This document shows, piece after piece, positions 6,835-47,038 of a stretch of 64,000 nt of DNA (positions within the stretch are counted from its first letter, which is position 1; every line of letters starts with the position of its first letter). This DNA is from Escherichia coli (lineage in GTDB: Bacteria; Pseudomonadota; Gammaproteobacteria; Enterobacterales; Enterobacteriaceae), in the NCBI RefSeq assembly GCF_024502345.1, contig NZ_JALDNN010000001.1. One strand, written 5' to 3'. The notes beneath the pieces were generated by a model. The model saw only the letters and a program-made list of their open reading frames with translations, searched no databases and was not told the origin of the DNA. A program made the position numbers and the translations under genes.

Positions 6835-8577
6835 ATGATAAAACCGACGTTTTTACGCCGGGTGGCCATTGCTGCTCTGCTCTCAGGAAGTTGTTTTAGC
6901 GCCGCCGCCGCGCCTCCTGCGCCGCCCGTCTCGTATGGTGTGGAGGAAGATGTCTTCCACCCGGTACGCGCGAAACAGGGAATGGTAGCGTCTGTGGACG
7001 CCACTGCCACTCAGGTGGGGGTGGATATTCTCAAGGAGGGCGGGAATGCCGTTGATGCCGCCGTGGCGGTGGGCTACGCGCTGGCGGTAACGCATCCGCA
7101 GGCAGGGAATCTGGGCGGTGGTGGTTTTATGTTAATCCGCTCGAAAAATGGCAATACCACGGCTATCGATTTCCGCGAAATGGCACCCGCCAAAGCGACC
7201 CGCGATATGTTCCTCGATGATCAGGGCAACCCGGACAGCAAAAAATCACTCACTTCGCATCTGGCTTCCGGCACACCGGGTACGGTAGCAGGTTTCTCGC
7301 TGGCGCTGGATAAATACGGCACCATGCCGCTGAACAAAGTCGTGCAGCCCGCGTTTAAACTGGCACGCGATGGTTTTATCGTTAACGACGCGCTGGCTGA
7401 CGATCTCAAAACCTACGGTAGCGAAGTGTTGCCGAATCACGAAAACAGTAAAGCTATCTTCTGGAAAGAGGGCGAGCCGCTGAAAAAGGGCGACACGCTG
7501 GTGCAGGCGAACCTGGCAAAGAGCCTGGAGATGATTGCTGAAAACGGCCCGGACGAATTCTATAAAGGCACGATTGCGGAACAGATCGCCCAGGAGATGC
7601 AGAAAAACGGTGGCTTGATCACTAAAGAAGATTTAGCGGCCTATAAAGCGGTCGAACGCACTCCGATAAGCGGCGATTATCGCGGGTATCAGGTTTACTC
7701 CATGCCACCGCCATCCTCCGGCGGGATCCATATCGTACAAATCCTCAATATTCTGGAAAACTTCGATATGAAGAAATACGGCTTTGGCAGCGCCGATGCG
7801 ATGCAAATCATGGCAGAAGCGGAGAAACACGCCTACGCCGACCGCTCGGAATATCTTGGCGACCCGGATTTTGTCAAAGTCCCGTGGCAGGCACTGACCA
7901 ATAAAGCCTATGCCAAATCCATTGCCGATCAAATTGATATCAACAAAGCGAAGCCGTCCAGTGAGATTCGCCCTGGCAAGCTTGCGCCTTATGAGAGTAA
8001 TCAAACTACCCATTACTCAGTGGTGGATAAAGATGGTAACGCGGTGGCGGTGACCTATACGCTGAACACCACCTTCGGTACGGGCATTGTCGCGGGCGAG
8101 AGCGGTATTCTGCTTAATAATCAGATGGATGATTTCTCCGCTAAACCGGGCGTACCGAACGTTTACGGGCTGGTGGGCGGTGATGCCAACGCCGTCGGGC
8201 CGAATAAACGTCCGCTGTCGTCAATGTCACCAACGATTGTGGTGAAAGACGGTAAAACCTGGCTGGTCACCGGTAGCCCTGGCGGGAGCCGGATCATCAC
8301 TACAGTGCTGCAAATGGTGGTGAATAGCATCGATTATGGCATGAACGTCGCCGAAGCGACCAATGCGCCGCGTTTCCACCATCAGTGGTTGCCGGACGAG
8401 CTGCGTGTCGAAAAAGGGTTTAGCCCGGATACGCTCAAGCTGCTGGAAGCAAAAGGTCAGAAAGTGGCGCTGAAAGAGGCGATGGGCAGTACACAAAGCA
8501 TTATGGTTGGGCCGGACGGTGAGTTGTACGGCGCATCCGACCCGCGCTCGGTGGATGATTTAACGGCGGGGTACTAA
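6835..8577 (+). CDS. ggt: Gamma-glutamyltranspeptidase
   Basis: ORF track 6808..8577; start set at ATG 6835 (MIKPTFLRRVAIAALL...), 580 aa; signal peptide and recalled Ggt sequence. Confidence 0.95.
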   Translation: MIKPTFLRRVAIAALLSGSCFSAAAAPPAPPVSYGVEEDVFHPVRAKQGMVASVDATATQVGVDILKEGGNAVDAAVAVGYALAVTHPQAGNLGGGGFMLIRSKNGNTTAIDFREMAPAKATRDMFLDDQGNPDSKKSLTSHLASGTPGTVAGFSLALDKYGTMPLNKVVQPAFKLARDGFIVNDALADDLKTYGSEVLPNHENSKAIFWKEGEPLKKGDTLVQANLAKSLEMIAENGPDEFYKGTIAEQIAQEMQKNGGLITKEDLAAYKAVERTPISGDYRGYQVYSMPPPSSGGIHIVQILNILENFDMKKYGFGSADAMQIMAEAEKHAYADRSEYLGDPDFVKVPWQALTNKAYAKSIADQIDINKAKPSSEIRPGKLAPYESNQTTHYSVVDKDGNAVAVTYTLNTTFGTGIVAGESGILLNNQMDDFSAKPGVPNVYGLVGGDANAVGPNKRPLSSMSPTIVVKDGKTWLVTGSPGGSRIITTVLQMVVNSIDYGMNVAEATNAPRFHHQWLPDELRVEKGFSPDTLKLLEAKGQKVALKEAMGSTQSIMVGPDGELYGASDPRSVDDLTAGY

Positions 8578-8585
8578 GGTTAGCG

Positions 8586-8613
8586 GCCCTCTTCGTGGGA
8601 AGAGGGCTATTTT
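8586..8613. terminator. Hairpin terminator between convergent ggt and yrhB
   Basis: Perfect 9-bp stem gccctcttc / gaagagggc (8586-8594 and 8599-8607) with 4-nt loop, followed by tattttg. Confidence 0.6.
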
Positions 8614-8614
8614 G

Positions 8615-8899
8615 TCAGGGCAAGCCGAAGGTAGCCTTTTTTATTTCGTAATCCTGTAGATATTCTTCCAGCGGCTTTGCCGTTCCCAGAGAATGAATTT
8701 CACCACTGTCTTTATCAATAATAAAAGGTGCGTTACCAGCTAAGCGCGCGGCCTCATCTCCAGTTTCGAGAAATTCTCGTGCTTCGAAACAGAAATACCA
8801 GCCCTGGCTAAAGCGTCCATGTAGAGTAATGACGACCGGGAGATCTGCATCATCAAGGTAATGGTTCGCTTTCGCGAATGCGTCGTGATAAGTAATCAT
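8615..8899 (-). CDS. yrhB: Small heat-stable chaperone-like protein YrhB
   Basis: 94-aa ORF MITYHDAFAKANHYLDD... recalled as YrhB. Confidence 0.85.
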   Translation of the reverse strand: MITYHDAFAKANHYLDDADLPVVITLHGRFSQGWYFCFEAREFLETGDEAARLAGNAPFIIDKDSGEIHSLGTAKPLEEYLQDYEIKKATFGLP

Positions 8900-9098
8900 A
8901 ATTATAATAAATATTATTGTTGAGTGTTATATTATTATTCCTGTGTGATACATTGAGCAAAGACGCGTTCATCTTCGTCAAAGATATTATTAAATGCTGG
9001 TTTTGAAAAAAGTTCATCGGATAAGATATAGTCACGAAATAAGTATCTGCTAATATTTTATGATTTCTTTTTCAGAACGTCGAACGGGATTTTCTTAT

Positions 9099-9254
9099 TT
9101 AAGATATCAGAATCTTATGATTCGGGTAAAATTCTAAATAAATCAACATGTCATTAAAATCATCATAGCCATTAGCTATTTCGGCTAAAATAGAGACTAC
9201 ATGTCTTCGGTCCATCTCACTTAAGGAGTGTAGTTCCGTTGTAAGTTTTTCCAT
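9099..9254 (-). CDS. yrhD: Small protein, 51 aa (YrhD-like), not on the supplied ORF track
   Basis: Hand translation of the minus strand from ATG at 9254 gives MEKLTTELHSLSEMDRRHVVSILAEIANGYDDFNDMLIYLEFYPNHKILIS then stop at 9099-9101. Length and position match my recollection of K-12 yrhD; below the 60-aa track cut-off. Confidence 0.5.
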   Translation of the reverse strand: MEKLTTELHSLSEMDRRHVVSILAEIANGYDDFNDMLIYLEFYPNHKILIS

Positions 9255-9348
9255 AGCTTGCACTGCTAAATTTCGAACAAGGAATTTTCTGCTGGTAATC
9301 TCTAAAAAGATGGCATGGTTTACAATGATTTTTGTTTCCTTTTGATTA

Positions 9349-9843
9349 TTATGAACAACTGTCCATGATTTCGTTTAAGAATGAAGAGAAATCACTAAAC
9401 GAACTGAATATATTTTCTGTGCCAATATTATCTCTAATTTCAAAAAAGTTACTTTTAATGTCATAAGTAAATATTGAAATGCTATCATCCCCGATCACTA
9501 ACCGTTCTTGTAGATCAGGGTTTATGAAATCATCATTATTTCTATAAAATTCATTTACGGCAAAAAGGTTTTTAACTGAAGGTTCTGGAATCGAGAGGCT
9601 AAATAATCGTAATCCATTAACTTCGAATCCATCCATTGCTCTTAAAAAAGTAAGATAATCAGGTTGATTCTTAAAAAGAATACTAACTTCATTACATAAC
9701 TTCTCCAGGCAATTAGTTGAATTAGAATTAAATTCTATTTGGATTATACTTTCAATAAATGATTCCTTGAGCGGAGCTTCAAATGGATAGTCTAAATCAT
9801 TCATCATTTTTATTAATTTATTTATTTGGGTTTTAGTCATCAT
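9349..9843 (-). CDS. yrhA: Putative immunity protein for the upstream Hcp-nuclease toxin (YrhA-like, apparently intact)
   Basis: 164-aa AT-rich ORF immediately downstream of the toxin gene, with ATGA start/stop overlap (9840-9843); position typical of a toxin-immunity pair. Function inferred from context only. Confidence 0.6.
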   Translation of the reverse strand: MMTKTQINKLIKMMNDLDYPFEAPLKESFIESIIQIEFNSNSTNCLEKLCNEVSILFKNQPDYLTFLRAMDGFEVNGLRLFSLSIPEPSVKNLFAVNEFYRNNDDFINPDLQERLVIGDDSISIFTYDIKSNFFEIRDNIGTENIFSSFSDFSSFLNEIMDSCS

Positions 9844-11018
9844 TTTGTGTGGTCCATAATATTTTTCATGGGAGGATAAATTGAGCCAGATGGAATGGCC
9901 CAGGGAGTGATTTTGCTTTCACCTACTAATATTCCCTTAGCTATTCGTGATTGCATGTTAGTAAAAACTTTATGATATGGTTCGTTTTCGATTAATACTA
10001 AATTTTCGAAATCATTAGTACCACCATCATCTAGAGATAGTTTATGGTGAACATTATAATTTAGAGGAGCATTGCCCTTTCTCATTCTTAAAAGGTCTTC
10101 GGCGTTGAATCTTCCAGATGCTTCGGAGGTTTTTGCAAGTTTGATAAGAAAATTTTTTCTTACAGTTTTATTAAACTCCTTTCGTAAGTTAGCTAAGTCT
10201 TTTGAAGGTCTCTTAATGTATATTATTTCTATTATGTCTATACCATCAAGAAGTTTTTGTTGACCTCTAAGTTTGCCTAAGTAACTATTTATTTCTGTAT
10301 ATGTATCAACATTAGAACGCTTTGTTAAAAGAATAGATGCTGTTGCTATCGCTATGCCCGCTGTTTTTTCATTTAGTATTTGATCATAGCCTTTTATTGC
10401 ATCTCCACCCAGTTTTTCCGCAGTATCTCTGAATCCTTCAATGTTCCCATTGTATACGCCACCAGCAGCAAGTAGCCTGCCAATAGCTTTGCTGTTTAAC
10501 GTTTTGAAACGATTATTTGTTTGGTTTTTTGAATTTGGTAAAAACAAACGGTTATAATTTTCAGGGAGTGCCAAATAGCTGAACTCGGTATTTGCGATAA
10601 GATGTTGACAGAGGATAAATTCATAACTAATAGTTATTGTTTCTGTATCCAGTTGGTTTTCAATGATCTGGTGATGAATAGCCGATAAAAAAGCGCCTCT
10701 TAGTTGTATATAATAATACTTTTCCAATCTACCAAATCTATTTATTCGATAGAAGTCAAATCCCATAAATAATTGTTCATTATTGTTAATGGAATTAATA
10801 AATAATGGAGTGCTTTTATCAATTAATTTACAAAATGTTATACCATGGAACTGTGAACCAAGCCCCGTATTATTAATATTATTTAAGAGTGAGAATGTAA
10901 ATATTTCATCCTCATGCCCGCTCTGCCAACGATTACCTGTAGACTCAGAAGTCCCACAACCTGCGGAGATGCTTCCTTGTTGTTCTCCCGTTACTGTCAG
11001 GTAAACAATATTACTCAT
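9840..11018 (-). CDS. yhhZ: Hcp-family protein with C-terminal HNH/colicin-DNase-like nuclease domain (Hcp-ET type polymorphic toxin, YhhZ)
   Basis: 392 aa. The N-terminal roughly 150 aa (MSNIVYLTVTGEQQGSISAGCGTSE...GHEDEI...) resemble Hcp/T6SS tube protein. The C-terminus carries NVHHKLSLDDGGTNDFENLVLIENEPYHK, matching the HH...GG...D..N...H pattern of colicin E9-type HNH DNases. Low G+C. Confidence 0.85.
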   Translation of the reverse strand: MSNIVYLTVTGEQQGSISAGCGTSESTGNRWQSGHEDEIFTFSLLNNINNTGLGSQFHGITFCKLIDKSTPLFINSINNNEQLFMGFDFYRINRFGRLEKYYYIQLRGAFLSAIHHQIIENQLDTETITISYEFILCQHLIANTEFSYLALPENYNRLFLPNSKNQTNNRFKTLNSKAIGRLLAAGGVYNGNIEGFRDTAEKLGGDAIKGYDQILNEKTAGIAIATASILLTKRSNVDTYTEINSYLGKLRGQQKLLDGIDIIEIIYIKRPSKDLANLRKEFNKTVRKNFLIKLAKTSEASGRFNAEDLLRMRKGNAPLNYNVHHKLSLDDGGTNDFENLVLIENEPYHKVFTNMQSRIAKGILVGESKITPWAIPSGSIYPPMKNIMDHTK

Positions 11019-11250
11019 CCCTGAAAAGTCCTTTTATGGCATGCTATTTTATCAATGGCAATATTATGCTTGTTAATTGTTATTTATTTACTCCAGGAAA
11101 TTGTAGGCGTATATATTAAAAAAATATTACACTTTAGGAAGTAATTATGAGTTAAATCTCAATATATGTATTGGGCAAATAAATACCTTAAAGGAAGGTA
11201 TGTCGATTTTGAATGACACCCTTTTTCCATCTCAGAAAAAGGGCACTATC

Positions 11251-11739
11251 TTACTTCACCCGCGCCATATAATATGCATCGACATATTCACCATTACGCA
11301 ATGCGTACTTCTTACCAGTCCCTTCAATTTCAAAGCCGTATTTTTTATAGACCTTAATTGCCGGGGCGTTATCGACAAACACGGTTAGTTCAATGCGATC
11401 TACCCGCAACCAGTTGTCGCACATTTCAATCATCTCTCGCATCAGGGCGCTGGCGACGCCGCGGTTCTTCCAACGAGAGTCGACACAGATACCAAAATCG
11501 GCAACATGACTGCGGCGTGGGCGCTGTTGCACGTCAATGGTGAGATGGCCCACGACGTCTCCATCAATACAGGCGACGAGTTGCTTGATGCCGGGACGAT
11601 CGGCGAGTCGCTCCTGCCACATATGATCGGAAGGATGAGGCACCTGTAGTGTGTTGCAATACACCTCCGGCTGGGCGTGAATCTGCCTGATGGCCTCGTA
11701 ATCCCGTGTTTCTGCGTGGCGTATTACTATCTCACTCAT
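11251..11739 (-). CDS. yhhY: GNAT-family N-acetyltransferase YhhY
   Basis: ORF track 11251..11817; start reassigned to ATG 11739 (MSEIVIRHAETRDYEAIRQIH...), 162 aa, with a GGA-rich RBS upstream. Confidence 0.9.
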   Translation of the reverse strand: MSEIVIRHAETRDYEAIRQIHAQPEVYCNTLQVPHPSDHMWQERLADRPGIKQLVACIDGDVVGHLTIDVQQRPRRSHVADFGICVDSRWKNRGVASALMREMIEMCDNWLRVDRIELTVFVDNAPAIKVYKKYGFEIEGTGKKYALRNGEYVDAYYMARVK

Positions 11740-11822
11740 TCCTTTGTCCTCTTTGGGGTAAATGTCCCTTTCAACATCATTGACTTTCAAATGCGAGTCA
11801 AATGCATTTTTTTGCAAAAAGT

Positions 11823-11860
11823 GTTGGACAAGTGCGAATGAGAATGATTATTATTGTCTC
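11823..11860 (+). promoter_or_regulatory. ryhB promoter with Fur box
   Basis: ttggacaagtgcgaatgagaatgattattattgtctc lies directly upstream of the RyhB +1; the gaatgagaatgattattatt segment resembles the Fur-box consensus gataatgataatcattatc. Confidence 0.6.
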
Positions 11861-11950
11861 GCGATCAGGAAGACCCTCGCGGAGAACCTGAAAGCACGAC
11901 ATTGCTCACATTGCTTCCAGTATTACTTAGCCAGCCGGGTGCTGGCTTTT
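11861..11950 (+). ncRNA. ryhB: RyhB small RNA (Fur-repressed, iron-sparing response)
   Basis: The 90 nt gcgatcaggaagaccctcgcggagaacctgaaagcacgacattgctcacattgcttccagtattacttagccagccgggtgctggctttt match RyhB as I recall it, ending in a Rho-independent terminator (gccagccgggtgctggc + T9). Lies between yhhY and yhhX as in K-12. Confidence 0.9.
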
Positions 11951-28858: not shown

Positions 28859-30376
28859 ATGGAAAGAATAATGCAAAACAGAAAATGGATTTTGTCCTCG
28901 CTGGTAATGACTTTTTTCGGCATCCCCATACTGACGCAATTTTTGGCGGCGGTTGTTGCTATGCTGGGTGTCGGACTTGCCGGTATTATTGAAGTTTGTA
29001 ATATCCTTATCACGCCAACAAGTTACCTTCTGCTCAACATTTTTATGCTGGCGCTGGGCGCATTAATGCTATTTTTCTCGGGGCGAGTATGGGCAGGCGA
29101 TAGTGCACCAGAAAAAAGAGAAATAGCCGTCTGGCGACAATGTCTTTTTTTAGTACCCGGTTTATTAATCCTGGTTGGCTGGATAATCGCGCTGCATCTG
29201 GCAGATTATCAATTTCACCAGATGGGATCGGGTTGGTTGGCTGATCTTATGCTCCCCTGGCTGGGCGTTTTGTTAGTCTCAGTAGTCGGAGGTGAGTACT
29301 GGTGGATAGTCATTATACCCGTTGGCGCGCATATCAGTTTTTCGCTGGGGTACGGCCGGCCAACCAGACATCCTTTAACCGGTACATCCGGGCTACGTTG
29401 CCGTAATTCCCTCCTGTTTATCCTTCTCATGCTTGGTTTTGTCGCTGGTTATCAGGGTTATTTATATAAACAGCTCAATCCCGGCGTCGGTGTGCGCGAA
29501 AATATTGATACCTGGGCCTGGCGACCCGATAAACTCAATAATCAACTGACACCACTGCGTGGTAAACCGCAAATTCAGTTTACGCAAAACTGGCCGCGAC
29601 TCGATGGTGCTACGGCGGCGTACCCAATTTATGCCTCTGCATTTTATGCTTTAAGCGTTATACCGGAAGATTTTCACACCAGGGAATATCTGGAGAGCTC
29701 TCGTACCCCCGATGCGTATAACAGGATTGTTAAAGGTGATGCTGATAGTATTTTTGTGGCGCAACCTTCCGGTGGGCAGAAAAAACGCGCTGAGGAATCG
29801 GGCGTTACTTTGCTGTACACGCCTTTTGCCCGTGAAGCGTTTGTTTTCATCGTCAATGCGGATAATCCGGTTAATTCCCTGACTGAACAACAGGTGCGTG
29901 ACATCTTCAGTGGTGCAATTACCAACTGGCGTACTGTTGGCGGTAACGATCAGGAGATCCAGACCTGGCAACGCCCGGAAGACTCTGGTAGCCAGACGGT
30001 GATGCAATCCCAGGTCATGAAAAATGTCCGCATGATCTCGCCGCAGGAAACAGAAGTGGCAAGTATGATGGAGGGAATGATTAAAGTCGTTGCCGAATAC
30101 CGTAATACAAACAACTCAATAGGTTACACCTTCCGTTATTACGCAACACAAATGAACGCCGATAAAAATATAAAACTGCTAGCGATTAACGGTATTGCAC
30201 CGACTGCCGAAAACATTCGCAACGGCAAATATCCCTATATCGTCGATGCCTTTATGGTAACGCGGGAAAATACGATGTCAGAGACACAAAAATTGTTGGA
30301 GTGGTTTTTAACGCCGCAGGGACAGAGTTTGGTGGAAGATGTAGGTTATGTCCCGATGTATAAGACGCTACCTTAA
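28859..30376 (+). CDS. Membrane-anchored protein: N-terminal polytopic domain fused to a C-terminal PstS-fold periplasmic-binding-protein-like domain; function unknown
   Basis: 505 aa. Residues 1 to about 190 contain several hydrophobic helices. The C-terminal half carries PstS-family motifs (LTEQQVRDIFSGAITNWRTVGG; RPEDSGSQ; IGYTFRYY; LLAINGIAPTAENIRNGKYPY; VGYVPMY). Alternative start ATG 28871. As I recall, K-12 keeps only a short pseudogene remnant (yzgL) at this position. Confidence 0.8.
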   Translation: MERIMQNRKWILSSLVMTFFGIPILTQFLAAVVAMLGVGLAGIIEVCNILITPTSYLLLNIFMLALGALMLFFSGRVWAGDSAPEKREIAVWRQCLFLVPGLLILVGWIIALHLADYQFHQMGSGWLADLMLPWLGVLLVSVVGGEYWWIVIIPVGAHISFSLGYGRPTRHPLTGTSGLRCRNSLLFILLMLGFVAGYQGYLYKQLNPGVGVRENIDTWAWRPDKLNNQLTPLRGKPQIQFTQNWPRLDGATAAYPIYASAFYALSVIPEDFHTREYLESSRTPDAYNRIVKGDADSIFVAQPSGGQKKRAEESGVTLLYTPFAREAFVFIVNADNPVNSLTEQQVRDIFSGAITNWRTVGGNDQEIQTWQRPEDSGSQTVMQSQVMKNVRMISPQETEVASMMEGMIKVVAEYRNTNNSIGYTFRYYATQMNADKNIKLLAINGIAPTAENIRNGKYPYIVDAFMVTRENTMSETQKLLEWFLTPQGQSLVEDVGYVPMYKTLP

Positions 30377-30460
30377 AGCTGGATAATAAAAATGGAATTA
30401 GTTAATACATTATTTGCAAGCCTTGCCGGTACTGATCCCTTCACAGGCGTGGATATTACG

Positions 30461-30469
30461 ATTGCCAAC
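30461..30469. repeat. 9-bp target-site duplication (left copy) attgccaac
   Basis: Identical to 31527..31535, directly flanking the IS termini. Confidence 0.85.
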
Positions 30470-30487
30470 GGCTTTGTTGAATAAATC
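30470..30487. repeat. IS903 terminal inverted repeat (18 bp)
   Basis: ggctttgttgaataaatc; exact reverse complement is found at 31509..31526. Confidence 0.9.
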
Positions 30488-30525
30488 AGATTTCGGGTAA
30501 GTCTCCCCCGTAGCGGGTTGTGTTT

Positions 30526-31449
30526 TCAGGCAATACGCACGCTTTCAGGCATACCTGCTTTCGTCATTTTGTTCAGCGCTCGTACCAGGGCCATAGCCTC
30601 TGCAACCTGACCATCGTAGTCACGCAGTGTCAGTGAACCCCCGAACAGCTGTTTTACCCGGTACATCGCCGTTTCCGCTATCGAGCGACGGTTGTAATCT
30701 GTTGTCCATTTCCACCGCGCATTACTCCCGGTCATTCGCTGATTAGCCACTGCACGGTTACGGTCTGCATATTCACCGGGCCAGTAACCCGCACCTTTTC
30801 GGGGAGGGATAAGCGCGCTGATTTTCTTACGCCGCAGTTCATCGTGACATAGCCGGGTATCGTAAGCGCCATCGGCGGCGGCTGACCTGATTTTCCGGTG
30901 GGTTTGCCGGATTAACCCGGGGAAGGCCTCTGAGTCCGTAACGTTGTTCAGCGACAGGTCAGCGCAGATGATTTCATGTGTTTTACTGTCAACGGCGAGA
31001 TGCAGCTTACGCCAGATACGGCGGCGTTCCTGGCCATGCTTTTTGACTTTCCACTCGCCTTCACCGAAGACCTTCAGCCCGGTGGAATCAATTACCAGGT
31101 GTGCGATTTCACCCCGGGTGGGCGTTTTGAAACTGACATTAACCGACTTTGCCCGCCTGCTGACACAGCTGTAATCCGGGCAGCGTAGCGGAACGTTCAT
31201 CAGAGAAAAAATGGAATCAATAAAGCCCTGCGCAGCGCGCAGGGTCAGCCTGAATACGCGTTTAATGACCAGCACAGTCGTGATGGCAAGGTCAGAATAG
31301 CGCTGAGGTCTGCCTCGTGAAGAAGGTGTTGCTGACTCATACCAGGCCTGAATAGCTTCATCATCCAGCCAGAAAGTTATGGAGCCACGGTTGATGAGGG
31401 CTTTATTGTAGGTGGGCCAGTTGGTGATTTTGAACTTTTGCTTTGCCAC
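30526..31449 (-). CDS. IS903 transposase (DDE, IS5 family)
   Basis: ORF track 30526..31494 (TTG); probable GTG start at 31449 giving 307 aa beginning MAKQKFKITNWPTYNKALINRGS..., which matches my recollection of the IS903 transposase; also ...LVIDSTGLKVFGEGEWKVKKHG.... Confidence 0.9.
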   Translation of the reverse strand: MAKQKFKITNWPTYNKALINRGSITFWLDDEAIQAWYESATPSSRGRPQRYSDLAITTVLVIKRVFRLTLRAAQGFIDSIFSLMNVPLRCPDYSCVSRRAKSVNVSFKTPTRGEIAHLVIDSTGLKVFGEGEWKVKKHGQERRRIWRKLHLAVDSKTHEIICADLSLNNVTDSEAFPGLIRQTHRKIRSAAADGAYDTRLCHDELRRKKISALIPPRKGAGYWPGEYADRNRAVANQRMTGSNARWKWTTDYNRRSIAETAMYRVKQLFGGSLTLRDYDGQVAEAMALVRALNKMTKAGMPESVRIA

Positions 31450-31508
31450 GGAACGGTCTGCGTTGTCGGGAAGATACGTGATCTGATCCTTCAACTCAGC
31501 AAAAGTTC

Positions 31509-31526
31509 GATTTATTCAACAAAGCC
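31509..31526. repeat. IS903 terminal inverted repeat (18 bp, other end)
   Basis: gatttattcaacaaagcc = reverse complement of 30470..30487. Confidence 0.9.
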
Positions 31527-31535
31527 ATTGCCAAC
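31527..31535. repeat. 9-bp target-site duplication (right copy) attgccaac
   Basis: Identical to 30461..30469. Confidence 0.85.
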
Positions 31536-32170
31536 TGCAAATCGGCATACTGGGATGAAGGCATTGTTCAGCAACTTATTAACCAGGCCCTGGATGAAGG
31601 GGAAAAGTTCGTCGGTGCTGACGGTCTTGAGGGATTGCTTCGATATGATGTCACATTAAATATTGGCTTAACCTCCAGCAAGGTATGGCCGGGATTTTCC
31701 CTCGATACCGCCACCATTAGCCGTCTTTGTGCCTGTGGTGCTGATTTTGGATTTGACCCCTATATCAGTGATGTACCAGATGTTCAATGTGACCTGAACA
31801 CGACAAATGACGTCACCGTACAATTTACGGCGATGCTAAATCCGGATGAGCGGGTGATAATAGCAAAGCGCCCGCTTAAAAAATGTGACTCCTGGATTGA
31901 GGATGTCTATATCTTTCAGGTCTTAAAAGATGCCTGGAAATTTCATAACAATAACAGTTTACGCGGATTTCGCGATAAGCAGGCCGAACTGAAACTCTAC
32001 ACGCGTCATTACTCAGTGGAAAATTGCGCAGAGGAAAGCTGTCGAGACTGCAATAGTTGCATTCGCCCCAGCTTTTCCCTTTCGCGTAGCGCCCTTATTC
32101 GCCTGAACGCGGCGAATGCTCGTTTTGTCTATCAACCGTTTACACGCGATCAGCGGGCGAGGGGGTAACT

Positions 32171-32938
32171 ATGCAACCCAGCCCTGCCATGCAGGCATTA
32201 ATTGAGCAGATTTATCACACCTTTCGTCGTTATCGGGTGCCGCAGAAATTTGTGGTTTGTTGTGAATATTGCCTGAGTCAGCAGGAACAAAAGGCATTAC
32301 GGAGTACATCGTTACGAGCGATCCCGTATTCCTTAATCAATGCCTGGAATAGTAGCCCAGGGCCTGATCCGCAAAATAGCGATGAGGTCCGCTATTTTCT
32401 GCCGCGTTTACTGGAATTTGTTGCACAGGGGCATTTTGACAATATTCACGTAGTTTTTTCTCTGCGCCGTATCAACCTTGCCAACAAAGAAAACTGGCGT
32501 GCGGATGAACGGGCAATTTTACAGCGATTTGCCTGCCAGTATATGACTGATTGGGTATCCGGCGATGAAGCTGTCGAATTACAGTATATGCTGGAAATGT
32601 TTTTCCGTGCCGATATCGCTCTTGCGCCATTGCTGGATGCCATTAATTCAGTTCCCGGCTTTTGGTCGACCGTTTCTCTTGCCTGTTTATTGAACAGATA
32701 TTGTGAGGATTATATCAGAGATAACCAGGACGATATCGATAACGCCATTACCACCCAAATCAATGCCTGGGCTAGAAATAATCATCCTTTACTGAAAGAA
32801 AGAGCGCGGCAAGCGATTGAGAACCCGCTAAAACAGCCCGAACCAATGACAGAATATCATGTCTGGGAAGATGACTGGATAATTGATGAGTGTTTATGCG
32901 CGATGTATGACGCATCATCCGAATCACCAGGAAAATAA
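32171..32938 (+). CDS. Third islet gene, hypothetical protein (255 aa), no recognisable motif
   Basis: ORF starts 2 nt after the stop of the preceding gene; soluble-looking; no family recognised by eye. Confidence 0.7.
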   Translation: MQPSPAMQALIEQIYHTFRRYRVPQKFVVCCEYCLSQQEQKALRSTSLRAIPYSLINAWNSSPGPDPQNSDEVRYFLPRLLEFVAQGHFDNIHVVFSLRRINLANKENWRADERAILQRFACQYMTDWVSGDEAVELQYMLEMFFRADIALAPLLDAINSVPGFWSTVSLACLLNRYCEDYIRDNQDDIDNAITTQINAWARNNHPLLKERARQAIENPLKQPEPMTEYHVWEDDWIIDECLCAMYDASSESPGK

Positions 32939-32940
32939 AA

Positions 32941-33546
32941 ATGATTAAATTCCGGCTTTATATTCCCCCTGTAATTCTCGGTTTTGTTATCGTGCCATTA
33001 TTGGTATGGCCGACGGTTATTGTCTTAGCCGTACTTATATTCACGTTAACTTTTCTGGCAGAAATAATATTCTCCTTTCCGCTCCTGGTTGTACGTATTT
33101 CTCTTCAGGAATTACAACTTGAGTTAATGGTTGAATATGCACTTTTTTTCAGTGTAATGGCTGGCATCGGTTGGCAATTCTCCCGCAGAACGCCTCCTGA
33201 ATTAAAAAACAGACTGCATTGCTGGCTGGTCTTTTCGCCGGTCTATTTCTGGTTAATTCTCTCGAATTTCATTCTTTATATTTCTCCAGAGAAATCAGCG
33301 TTGCTGGAAAATATCCGAAATTTCTTTCTGACGTTTGTCTGGCCTCCCCTGAATTTTTCCCCTTTTTGGCCGCAGCCTTGGACTGATTTTGTCGGCCCGA
33401 TTAGTGCACAGCTTGGTTTTGCATTGGGATATTATTGCCATTGGTGCAGAAAAAATAGAAACCAGAGGAAGAAGTGGGGCGATTGGGTAACGTGCTTAAG
33501 TTTGGCGATTTTAGCTCAGGGGCCGTTATTCAATTATTTACAATGA
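32941..33546 (+). CDS. Fourth islet gene, small multi-pass membrane protein (201 aa), function unknown
   Basis: ORF starts 2 nt after the stop of the third gene; several hydrophobic segments (VILGFVIVPLLVWPTVIVLAVLIFTLTFLAEIIF; WLVFSPVYFWLILSNFILYI); lowest G+C of the islet by eye. Confidence 0.7.
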   Translation: MIKFRLYIPPVILGFVIVPLLVWPTVIVLAVLIFTLTFLAEIIFSFPLLVVRISLQELQLELMVEYALFFSVMAGIGWQFSRRTPPELKNRLHCWLVFSPVYFWLILSNFILYISPEKSALLENIRNFFLTFVWPPLNFSPFWPQPWTDFVGPISAQLGFALGYYCHWCRKNRNQRKKWGDWVTCLSLAILAQGPLFNYLQ

Positions 33547-41326: not shown

Positions 41327-44038
<2,712 letters not shown>

Positions 44039-44530
44039 TCACTTCACTGTGGAAAATGAGGAAATATTATTTTTTTTTGCGCTTCGTAATTAATGGTTAT
44101 AAGGTCGGCCAGAAACCTTTCTAATGCAAGCGATGACGTTTTTTTATGTGTCTGAATTTGCACTGTGTCACAATTCCAAATCTTTATTAACAACTCACCT
44201 AAAACGACGCTGATCCAGCGTGAATACTGGTTTCCCTTATGTTCATCAGATTCATTTAAGCAAGGGTTTCTTCTTCATTCCTGATGAAAGTGCCATCTAT
44301 AAAGATGATCTTAATAAATCTATTAAGAATGAGATGGAGCACACTGGATATTTTACTTGTGAAACTGTTTCACTCCTTTACTTAATTTATAGAGTTACCT
44401 TCCGCTTTTTGAAAATACGCAACGGCCATTTTTTGCACTTAGATACAGATTTTCTGCGCTGTATTGCATTGATTTGCTGCTAATCCTGTGGTTTGCACTA
44501 GCTTTAAGTGGTTGAGATCACATTTCCTTG

Positions 44531-44576
44531 CTCATCCCCGCAACTCCTCCCTGCCTAATCCCCCGCAGGATGAGGA
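44531..44576 (+). promoter_or_regulatory. malPQ promoter region with MalT boxes
   Basis: Three copies of the MalT box GGA(T/G)GA in the two orientations: ctcatccccg, ctcctccc and ggatgagga (44568-44576), about 70-110 bp upstream of the malP ATG. Confidence 0.55.
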
Positions 44577-44620
44577 AGGTCAACATCGAGCCTGGCAAAC
44601 TAGCGATAACGTTGTGTTGA

Positions 44621-47038
<2,418 letters not shown>

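Follow-up and report, generated by a model that had tools for sequence, protein, structure and literature searches.

An AT-rich islet in the ggt–yhhY gap of Escherichia coli is very probably an orphan type VI secretion effector–immunity cassette

The AT-rich patch at positions 8900-11250 of the window (the whole 64 kb stretch of E. coli DNA analysed here) is, with high probability, an orphan type VI secretion system (T6SS) effector–immunity cassette of the "evolved Hcp" kind, lodged between two core genes, ggt and yhhY. Its base composition, gene and domain identities, toxin–immunity pairing, boundaries, population distribution and synteny in Citrobacter were observed directly. Toxicity as a DNase, delivery dependent on T6SS2, blocking by ETI1 and ChIP occupancy by H-NS are taken from published work and would apply here by analogy. 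Such a cassette has already been described in the literature, hence the finding is correct but ordinary and does not overturn current knowledge; what it offers is the conversion of a compositional oddity into a named toxin/antidote cassette of interbacterial competition.

Results

The G+C content of the 2351 nt between 8900 and 11250 is 0.319 (31.9%), as compared with a mean of 0.527 (sd 0.022, minimum 0.453) for the other 2351-nt windows across the 64 kb, which places it ~9.6 sd below the mean, and the lowest-G+C window of this size in the entire stretch starts at 8901. The sliding-window calculation thus bears out the AT-rich islet proposed in a first-pass annotation, a clear difference from the rest of the DNA being found. 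At 100-nt resolution G+C falls on the left from 0.48 to 0.30 at ~8850-8900, and on the right it is back above 0.5 only by ~11350-11400. Codon usage is also strongly atypical, with a GC3 of 0.26 in yhhZ, 0.24 in yrhA and 0.33 in yrhD versus 0.60 ± 0.06 in the 44 other long ORFs of the window, and a CAI-like index of 0.46-0.50 for the islet genes versus 0.68 ± 0.06. TpA steps are found at 99 versus 41 per kb, and the H-NS-motif-like sequence TCGATAAATT, allowing at most 2 mismatches, at 3.8 versus 1.1 per kb.

The genes named in that annotation, yrhD, yrhA and yhhZ, match what RefSeq annotates in a genome with 99.9% identity, and all three lie on the minus strand (Table 1). Concerning the proposed flanks, yhhY is indeed the neighbour on the right, but on the left it is not ggt but yrhB, itself part of the variable cassette. 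The stop codons of ggt and yhhY delimit the variable DNA (about 8578-11250), which hence includes yrhB and fills a tail-to-tail ggt/yhhY gap with a locus of about 2.7 kb. On the left, the alignment with an empty-site strain, which has another hairpin there, breaks directly past the ggt stop; on the right, empty-site, yrhB-only and O157 genomes become homologous again exactly at the yhhY stop. There are no integrase, transposase, recombinase or phage genes among the ORFs between ggt and yhhY, a tRNA search at the islet found none, and a repeat search of the junctions turned up neither direct nor inverted terminal repeats. An Rfam scan of 8300-11900 returned a single sub-threshold snoRNA match, attributed to chance in AT-rich DNA.

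Table 1. Features of the ggt–yhhY gap and its edges (window coordinates).
Feature	Coordinates	Strand	Remarks
ggt stop codon	8575-8577		
ggt terminator hairpin	8585-8608	+	terminator-like site; first islet-specific DNA past the ggt stop
yrhB	8615-8899	-	94 aa, G+C 0.46; Imm35-family orphan immunity gene
Unannotated pseudogene remnant	8938-9096	-	within yrhD-yrhB "intergenic" DNA
yrhD	9099-9254	-	51-aa ORF, annotated in RefSeq
yrhA	9349-9843	-	164 aa, intact, IS1-free; putative immunity protein (ETI1) to the YhhZ nuclease
yhhZ, whole gene	9840-11018	-	
yhhZ codons 233-392	9843-10322	-	predicted HNH/His-Me-finger DNase toxin domain
yhhZ codons 172-232	10323-10505	-	conserved linker module
yhhZ codons 1-150	10569-11018	-	Hcp (TssD) tube-protein domain
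yhhZ upstream region and hairpin past the yhhY stop	11019-11250	-	G+C about 0.25-0.3; right end of the variable DNA

In YhhZ an Hcp tube domain is joined by a conserved linker of ~60 aa to a predicted HNH DNase of the colicin/pyocin type. Its N-terminus matches Pfam T6SS_HCP (E=1.6e-11, above the gathering score) and the PDB entry of Hcp3 (3he1, E=2.3e-11), and the protein matches TIGR03344 (E=3.8e-34, above its cut-off). The toxin domain is a C-terminal extension, residues 233-392, whose matches to Pfam HNH (PF01844, 17.3-18.8 bits versus a gathering score of 21.4) and Col-Pyo_DNase both fall below the gathering scores. Across 29 relatives there is no variation at the motif residues H324, H325, K326, N335 and N339 and hardly any at H349. 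The AlphaFold model of the domain (pLDDT 90.8) displays a ββα-metal fold, and its best Foldseek matches in the PDB are the DNases of pyocin S2/AP41 and colicin E7/E9 (probability 1.0). In the literature YhhZ features both among the evolved Hcps and among the His-Me finger toxins, and the domain is placed in His-Me finger group 32 (PMC5714182). The RefSeq label is often just "TssD tube protein", which conceals the nuclease toxin. A role of yhhZ-yrhAB in methionine-to-cysteine conversion (PMC3309015) was rejected as a mix-up with Bacillus genes that are unrelated, given that the domain evidence contradicts it.

The linker has the consensus LNSKAxGRLLAAGGVYNGNxEGFRxTAExLGGDAxKGYDQILNEKT..., and C-terminal toxins are exchanged past it. 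It also occurs in proteins with other N-termini (DUF8093 or none) and ahead of other toxins (a Colicin_D tRNase or unknown ones).

The yrhA gene overlaps yhhZ by 4 nt at the yhhZ stop; the two would be translationally coupled, and the yrhA product is the candidate cognate SUKH-like immunity protein, ETI1. YrhA matches the NCBIfam YrhA family (E=1.5e-36), and its homologues always lie 3' of a YhhZ-type HNH toxin, fused to Hcp, DUF8093 or LXG. This pairing is kept in Citrobacter, Leclercia, Enterobacter, Listeria and Clostridium, with DUF8093 fusions in Leclercia and Enterobacter, and in the Listeria LXG and Clostridium WXG100 loci the YrhA profile matches the genes that follow (hhalign 94.6% and 82%, respectively). 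Regarding its fold, YrhA of the window has no match in Pfam, weak SUKH_6 matches appear in 2 of 19 family members (best 3e-4), others match SMI1_KNR4 at 0.02 and SUKH_5 at 0.05, and some UniRef entries of the family are named SMI1/KNR4. Sequence and profile searches against PDB sequences returned spurious antibody matches only, and the AlphaFold model, built on a 19-sequence alignment, is poor (pLDDT 49), hence the sequence-based SUKH assignment of YrhA is weak.

K-12 carries the same genes in the same order at the same site, yhhZ-yrhA-(IS1E)-yrhD-yrhB, with a DNA identity of about 99.7-99.9%, and differs by the IS1E in yrhA, which removes the last ~34 codons. The K-12 insertion was correctly said to be absent from this locus: IS1 lies within yrhA in W3110, and there is none in the window nor in most genomes.

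The rest of the islet (yrhD, the remnant and yrhB) is probably a decaying tail of orphan immunity-type genes. YrhB is a clear member of Pfam Imm35 (PF15567, 81.8 bits versus a gathering score of 27.5, E=4e-23), a family linked to Tox-PL1/Ntox40 toxins and not to HNH toxins (PMC3482391). With neither a Tox-PL1 nor an Ntox40 toxin in the ggt–yhhY gap, yrhB counts as an orphan immunity gene; it is missing from empty-site genomes and is the sole gene at the site in "yrhB-only" genomes. The remnant shows 47% identity over 53 aa (tblastn, E=6e-13) to an 85-aa gene found 3' of the yrhA homologue in Citrobacter youngae, and its translation has lost the start codon, contains an in-frame stop and is truncated. 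Of practical use for annotation are the gene remnant in the "intergenic" DNA between yrhD and yrhB and the orphan immunity status of yrhB. YrhD has no match in Pfam or NCBIfam; in other strains it presents an internal stop, truncation or indel, and two comparisons gave 7 nonsynonymous versus 1 synonymous and 4 versus 0 changes, with a dN/dS of 1.8 where computable. Judged on these sequences, it is probably a decaying ORF.

Comparison of the locus across 5426 complete E. coli genomes showed the islet, an empty site or a replacement cassette between ggt and yhhY, both of which are present in essentially all genomes. The islet, counted when at least 80% of the segment is present, occurs in 3757 (69%), the junction is empty in 985, and 343 hold a different cassette (O157:H7 type) with a DUF4225 T6SS toxin. 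A scan of genome contigs with a single protein query gave 7 loci, from close relatives only. At the same ggt–yhhY site C. youngae has the same pair, an Hcp-fused toxin and a yrhA homologue, and C. werkmanii an Hcp-ET with another toxin. Relatives of the islet are also AT-rich (0.39 in Citrobacter and 0.355 in Leclercia, against a genomic background of 0.52-0.55), which makes low G+C characteristic of this cassette family. Synonymous divergence is lower in the islet than in its flanks, a hint that the islet spread later. Horizontal acquisition, as the annotation had suggested, is supported by these presence/absence figures, by the near-universal flanks and by the atypical composition and codon usage; the patch is thus a small E. 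coli cassette subject to horizontal exchange. The annotation was incomplete more than mistaken: it had not recognised a T6SS Hcp-nuclease effector/immunity cassette, the membership of yrhB, or a hotspot that is shared with, and filled in, Citrobacter. The cassette has no mobility genes of its own and would be exchanged, lost or replaced through homologous recombination in the core genes on either side.

In strains with a matching T6SS, YhhZ would be incorporated into the Hcp tube or travel with it, and be fired into neighbouring bacteria, whose DNA it would degrade. There are no tss genes in the window. The aspV-type T6SS sheath genes of 55989 occur in 2184 genomes (40%, in a survey of the aspV type alone) versus 3757 for the islet, in the nearest complete genome the tss core has disappeared from aspV, and K-12 is devoid of a T6SS; hence, in many carriers the toxin is undeliverable by an aspV-type system. 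The toxin of this strain may be undeliverable too if, like its closest sequenced relative, it is missing the aspV T6SS core.

As for H-NS, whose silencing of the islet had been anticipated, published ChIP data show binding over yhhZ and yrhA in K-12, whose sequence is near-identical to that of the window. "Promoter islands" inside both genes are H-NS-bound in the Kahramanoglou and Oshima sets, and the same regions are listed as foreign by Nakamura and Lawrence-Ochman (PMC3661553 Table 1); HNS is also marked at the yrhD promoter (PMC3946193). The H-NS-coated K-12 cassette is therefore probably poorly expressed in laboratory conditions, and we infer that the copy in this strain is silent as well. 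Our promoter/terminator scan found 15 sites versus 12.6 ± 3.4 in shuffled sequence, no excess, so the "promoter island" idea receives no separate backing from it. Promoters of yhhZ are cited in PMC12428005.

Discussion

The closest known system is Hcp-ET1/ETI1 of STEC004, O104:H4 C227-11 and EAEC 55989 (Ma et al. 2017, as relayed in PMC6730261, PMC6099711, PMC9990079 and bioRxiv 2024.03.05.583533), for which the same secondary literature reports DNase activity, T6SS2-dependent delivery and neutralisation by ETI1. Both this system and the islet have an orphan hcp outside T6SS clusters, an N-terminal Hcp, a C-terminal HNH and an immunity gene directly 3'. At the identical ggt–yhhY locus of 55989 YhhZ and YrhA are 99% identical to those described here, differing by 2 aa and 1 aa, respectively. 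YhhZ thus appears to be the published Hcp-ET1, an identification made through reviews, a preprint and the 55989 locus and not by direct comparison with the published protein sequence.

According to the model, the nuclease of YhhZ has the ββα-metal HNH core in common with colicin E7/E9 and pyocin S2/AP41, over 77-87 residues with an rmsd of 2.4-2.9 Å, although identity is just 17-30% and an extra N-terminal β/α part is present, with a TM score of 0.34-0.45. In colicin/pyocin DNases a tightly linked immunity gene blocks toxicity, as is proposed for YhhZ-YrhA, but there the immunity protein is of the Im-type four-helix class and not SUKH-like, and delivery occurs by receptor-mediated uptake and not through Hcp/T6SS. 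CdiA-CT and Rhs-CT loci share with the islet a conserved delivery part, a swap junction, a 3' immunity gene and orphan or decayed immunity genes; the islet differs in its Hcp delivery domain, its tiny size and its junction (LNSKA...NEKT, not VENN or PxxxxDPxGL). The DUF4225 cassette of O157:H7-type E. coli occupies exactly the same ggt–yhhY site and is equally AT-rich (0.318), but its toxin, not found in the window, is unrelated to YhhZ, acts in the periplasm and is not fused to Hcp; a DUF4225 T6SS effector is known from Hcp auxiliary modules of Vibrio parahaemolyticus (PMC9765294).

From the traits of a classical genomic island, atypical composition and variable presence are found here, whereas integrase, tRNA target and flanking repeats are not. 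It is accordingly highly improbable that the islet is what remains of a self-mobile element, be it a prophage, an integrative island or an IS-bounded transposon, in spite of its composition, its patchy distribution and the IS1 of the K-12 copy: between ggt and yhhY there is no gene of such an element, the IS1 is absent from the window and most genomes, and the repeat-free junctions lie exactly at two stop codons, common to the alternative cassettes. A dead relic, with AT-richness arising from mutational decay (GC-to-AT bias, relaxed selection) and not from foreign origin or function, and with nothing in it working any more, is improbable too. The dN/dS of yhhZ (0.44-1.08) does indicate relaxed constraint, the gene is frameshifted in one strain (ETEC6334), yrhD is pseudogenised in several, and the remnant, the missing aspV T6SS of many carriers, the IS1 tolerated by K-12 in yrhA and the spontaneous appearance of ΔyhhZ-yrhA all fit decay. 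However, phylogroup-divergent strains keep full-length yhhZ and yrhA ORFs with a dN/dS of 0.12-0.30 for yrhA, every conserved HNH motif residue is retained, the Citrobacter and Leclercia relatives are likewise AT-rich, synonymous divergence is lower and not higher than in the flanks, and the literature describes an active Hcp-ET1, matching the 99%-identical 55989 protein.

A possible, if rather doubtful, reading is that the pair works mainly inside the cell. It could be a toxin–antitoxin or addiction module, or else serve in immune defence, kept for the protection that yrhA and yrhB give against T6SS-armed kin and not for the firing of YhhZ by its carrier. The excess of islet carriers over carriers of the aspV type, the one T6SS type surveyed, points this way, and so do the stronger purifying selection on the immunity gene than on the toxin gene, the existence of yrhB-only genomes and the orphan immunity gene without cognate toxin (Imm35), typical of polyimmunity loci. 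Addiction is unlikely, given that K-12 is viable with an IS1-truncated yrhA and an intact yhhZ and that whole-locus deletions occur, and a defensive role is compatible with the T6SS effector–immunity cassette, not exclusive of it. Presence, absence and replacement of this cassette differ by lineage (K-12, O104/55989, O157:H7, B2), which may bear on antagonism between gut strains.

The ggt–yhhY gap is occupied by Hcp-ET1/YrhA in most E. coli and in C. youngae, by DUF4225 in O157:H7 and, in C. werkmanii, by an Hcp-ET whose toxin is a different one. More speculatively, and on balance unlikely, the gap could be a dedicated, integrase-free exchange slot for orphan T6SS effector/immunity cassettes across the Enterobacteriaceae, with the linker as an undescribed pre-toxin or junction module comparable in function to VENN of CdiA and AT-richness under selection. 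The linker is common to Hcp-, DUF8093- and stand-alone proteins with HNH, colicin-D or other toxins. In this reading the extreme AT-richness would be kept by selection, e.g. for H-NS control of a dangerous gene, instead of simply reflecting un-ameliorated foreign DNA.

Composition and gene layout

The AT-rich segment between ggt and yhhY corresponds to a well-known locus, yhhZ-yrhA-yrhD-yrhB, read here as an orphan effector-immunity islet (Hcp-ET1/ETI1). Sliding-window G+C, GC3 and codon usage show that the compositional anomaly marked in the first-pass annotation is real, strong and accurately placed: its G+C is 0.319, the global minimum for 2351-nt windows over the 64 kb begins at 8901, and the remaining windows of that size average 0.527 (sd 0.022, minimum 0.453). 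GC3 is 0.26 in yhhZ, 0.24 in yrhA and 0.33 in yrhD, against 0.60 ± 0.06 in 44 other long ORFs, while a codon-adaptation-like index with the genes of the window as reference gives 0.46-0.50 for the islet genes against 0.68 ± 0.06. TpA steps are enriched 2.4-fold in the islet, and sites resembling the H-NS motif TCGATAAATT 3.4-fold.

The closest match over 8400-11600 is strain USDA-ARS-USMARC-49610 (99.9% identity), whose RefSeq annotation was carried over to the window. The transferred layout agrees with the gene list proposed before (yrhD, yrhA, yhhZ), the sole slip being the left flank of the AT-rich block, where yrhB and not ggt adjoins. The absence of IS1 was also correctly noted, since yrhA is interrupted by this element in K-12 W3110 and free of it here.

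Features of the islet, its flanks and other loci discussed (window coordinates unless a comparison locus is named)
Feature	Position	Strand	Basis or content
ggt	6835-8577	+	RefSeq transfer
Exchangeable unit	~8578-11250		Alignment with islet-lacking genomes
Terminator hairpin	8585-8608
yrhB	8615-8899	−	RefSeq transfer
AT-rich segment	8900-11250		First-pass annotation
Gene remnant	8938-9096	−	Unannotated yrhD-yrhB spacer
yrhD	9099-9254	−	RefSeq transfer
yrhA	9349-9843	−	RefSeq transfer
yhhZ (annotated tssD)	9840-11018	−	RefSeq transfer
Linker	10323-10505		yhhZ codons 172-232
yhhY	11251-11739	−	RefSeq transfer
PstS-like gene cluster	28859-33546
Low-G+C intergenic region	44033-44644
DUF4225 cassette	L004:1679-3533		E. 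coli O157:H7 WS4202
138-aa ORF	L004:2047-2463
aspV-yafV interval	L032:26188-31606		USDA-ARS-USMARC-49610

Boundaries and population states

Alignment with islet-lacking genomes shows that homology ends directly after the ggt stop codon, the terminator hairpin being already different, and sets in again precisely at that of yhhY; the exchangeable unit hence includes yrhB, a gene with a G+C of 0.46. The possibility that the islet is a self-mobile element was rejected, as neither a tRNA, an Rfam family, terminal repeats nor a recombinase gene was found in the unit. In a survey of 5426 complete E. coli genomes, 3757 are carriers (at least 80% of 8400-11600 present), 985 have an empty ggt/yhhY junction, and 343, O157:H7 strains among them, hold a 1.8-kb DUF4225-gene cassette in place of the islet; the remainder includes yrhB-only genomes. 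As ggt and yhhY are matched in 5425 of the 5426, the description of an islet inside a core region was apt.

Concerning the alternative cassette, the copy in strain WS4202 (locus L004) is likewise AT-rich (G+C 0.318), and in Vibrio a DUF4225 domain has been shown to act as a T6SS effector against bacteria (PMC9765294). The copy also contains a convergent ORF of 138 aa that lacks annotation; its hydrophobic stretches resemble transmembrane segments, and it could be the immunity gene of this cassette.

Domain architecture and toxin-immunity pairing

YhhZ (392 aa) consists of three parts: an Hcp/TssD domain at residues 1-150 (Pfam 1.6e-11; TIGR03344 3.8e-34; PDB Hcp3 2.3e-11), a conserved linker at 172-232 and an HNH nuclease domain at 233-392. 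The last gives Pfam HNH and Col-Pyo_DNase matches that are both under gathering scores; H324, H325, K326, N335 and N339 do not vary among 29 relatives, and H349 hardly does. Its AlphaFold model is confident (pLDDT 90.8), with the DNase domains of pyocins S2/AP41 and colicins E7/E9 and Serratia Rhs2-CT as best PDB neighbours. The yhhZ stop overlaps the start codon of yrhA (ATGA), whose product matches the NCBIfam YrhA family (1.5e-36), members of which show weak SUKH matches.

Directly upstream of YrhA homologues there is always a gene that matches YhhZ 172-382 at its C-terminus, irrespective of its N-terminus. Citrobacter youngae carries the Hcp fusion at the same yhhY-ggt site (YhhZ 70% and YrhA 67% identical), Leclercia and Enterobacter have the YhhZ-type C-terminus on a non-Hcp 'DUF8093' N-terminus, and another enterobacterial contig has a short form. 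The nuclease domain adjoins an LXG (type VII) domain in Listeria rocourtiae and lies within a WXG100 locus in Clostridium kluyveri, and the YrhA profile matches the downstream genes in both (hhalign: 94.6%, E=7e-8 and 82%, E=1e-5, respectively). Conversely, other C-termini follow Hcp plus linker in Salmonella arizonae, at a second E. coli locus (dlhH-metE) and in Citrobacter werkmanii, there also at the ggt-yhhY site. In Erwinia, only the linker is found ahead of a colicin-D tRNase, and a colicin-type immunity gene is present. Such constant pairing with swapped N- and C-termini typifies a polymorphic toxin system, and the swap point falls around YhhZ residues 220-232.

The linker, about 60 aa (LNSKAxGRLLAAGGVYNGNxEGFRxTAExLGGDAxKGYDQILNEKT), is common to proteins with varied N-termini (Hcp, DUF8093 or none) and toxins (HNH, colicin D or unknown) and gave no Pfam match in our scans, and no mention of DUF8093 was found in the literature; it may represent an undescribed pre-toxin or junction module. 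It should be noted that contigs assigned to unrelated phyla, L006 (MAG 'Flavihumibacter', CABHOW010000200.1) and L011 (Alkalicoccobacillus porphyridii, 256 nt), encode YhhZ 98-99% identical to that of E. coli, most likely through E. coli contamination or mis-binning.

Relationship to Hcp-ET1/ETI1

YhhZ was named an 'evolved Hcp' by Blondel et al. 2009. Reviews and a preprint present Hcp-ET1 (STEC004, O104:H4 C227-11, 55989) as an orphan Hcp carrying an HNH DNase that is delivered via T6SS2, kills by degrading target DNA and is neutralised by the downstream-encoded ETI1 (PMC6730261, PMC6099711, PMC9990079; bioRxiv 2024.03.05.583533). Strain 55989 has the same ggt-yhhY cassette, with 390/392 identical residues for YhhZ and 163/164 for YrhA, and from this locus and the secondary literature we strongly infer that YhhZ/YrhA are Hcp-ET1/ETI1. 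An assignment of yhhZ-yrhAB to methionine-to-cysteine conversion (PMC3309015) is contradicted by the domain evidence.

The interpretation offered in the first-pass annotation, horizontal acquisition with likely H-NS silencing, is supported, if incomplete. What is added is incremental and of modest interest: the exact boundaries, the inclusion of yrhB, the DUF4225 cassette at the same slot, the Citrobacter synteny, the linker module, the gene remnant and the toxin-immunity relatives in Firmicutes.

H-NS, evolution and decay

In K-12, the Kahramanoglou and Oshima data sets show H-NS binding at promoter islands inside yhhZ and yrhA, which belong to a GIST island and are classed as foreign by Nakamura and Lawrence-Ochman (PMC3661553); a genomic SELEX study places HNS at the yrhD promoter (PMC3946193). 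Outside IS1, K-12 DNA is ~99.7-99.9% identical to the window, so H-NS very likely binds the islet in this strain as well and may silence it. Proteins of the flanks share 86-95% identity between E. coli and Citrobacter, those of the islet just 67-70%.

Against three divergent E. coli strains, a small sample, synonymous divergence is 0.01-0.05 for yhhZ and 0.03-0.08 for yrhA, higher for ugpQ, yhhX and yhhW (0.08-0.16) and far above the islet in its immediate flanks (ggt ~0.22, yhhY 0.27-0.64); dN/dS in this small sample spans 0.44-1.08 in yhhZ and 0.12-0.30 in yrhA. These values fit a spread of the cassette by recombination later than the divergence of the flanking alleles, and a tighter constraint on yrhA than on yhhZ. 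The between-strain dS of ggt and yhhY is unusually high also relative to the next genes outward (~0.08-0.16), and the ETEC6334 yhhY allele is 83% identical; these seem to be old, recombining alleles linked to cassette states.

No family is detectable for yrhD, which is damaged by an internal stop, indel or truncation in several strains (L022, L023, L024) and shows more nonsynonymous than synonymous changes (7 vs 1, and 4 vs 0); yhhZ is frameshifted in ETEC6334. Judging from such alleles, the cassette is eroding piecemeal with yrhA staying intact (L022, L023, L024). The yrhD-yrhB spacer holds a degraded gene copy, 47% identical over 53 aa to an 85-aa C. youngae gene located after the yrhA homologue; the copy in the spacer has lost its start codon, has an in-frame stop and is truncated. 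YrhB is a clear Imm35 protein (Pfam), and since Imm35 is associated with papain-like Tox-PL1 and Ntox40 toxins, not HNH (Zhang et al., PMC3482391), yrhB is an orphan immunity gene at the islet.

Deliverability

No tss genes are present in the window, and the aspV-yafV interval of USDA-ARS-USMARC-49610, the closest complete genome, holds an rhs/ydcD remnant only, with no tss core genes. Sheath genes of the aspV-linked T6SS of 55989 occur in 2184 of the 5426 genomes, so that at least ~1570 islet carriers lack this system, and K-12 is reported to be without a T6SS. Judged by the aspV-type T6SS alone, the cassette may in many carriers be an H-NS-coated relic that cannot be delivered; if it keeps any value, this would be immunity.

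In this closest genome (locus L032), the aspV-yafV interval keeps just an N-terminally truncated rhs, ydcD and remnants of ISAs1 in the place of the complete T6SS cluster of 55989, and aspV carries an integrative island whose genes include type III R-M and CbtA/YeeU. Engineered topA mutants of K-12 have been reported to acquire a secondary ΔyhhZ-yrhA deletion (bioRxiv 10.1101/2024.10.07.617030), with no known link to supercoiling.

Other low-G+C regions

A mildly low-G+C cluster (0.42-0.49), in which at least two further ORFs without Pfam match accompany a PstS-like (PBP_like_2) gene, probably corresponds to one annotated between glgP and glpD in 55989, and may be another accessory insertion. 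A final point concerns a low-G+C 1-kb bin (0.433), the intergenic region between two divergent long ORFs of 901 and 797 aa. From sequence alone we take these ORFs for malT and malP, in which case the bin would be an ordinary regulatory region and no islet.
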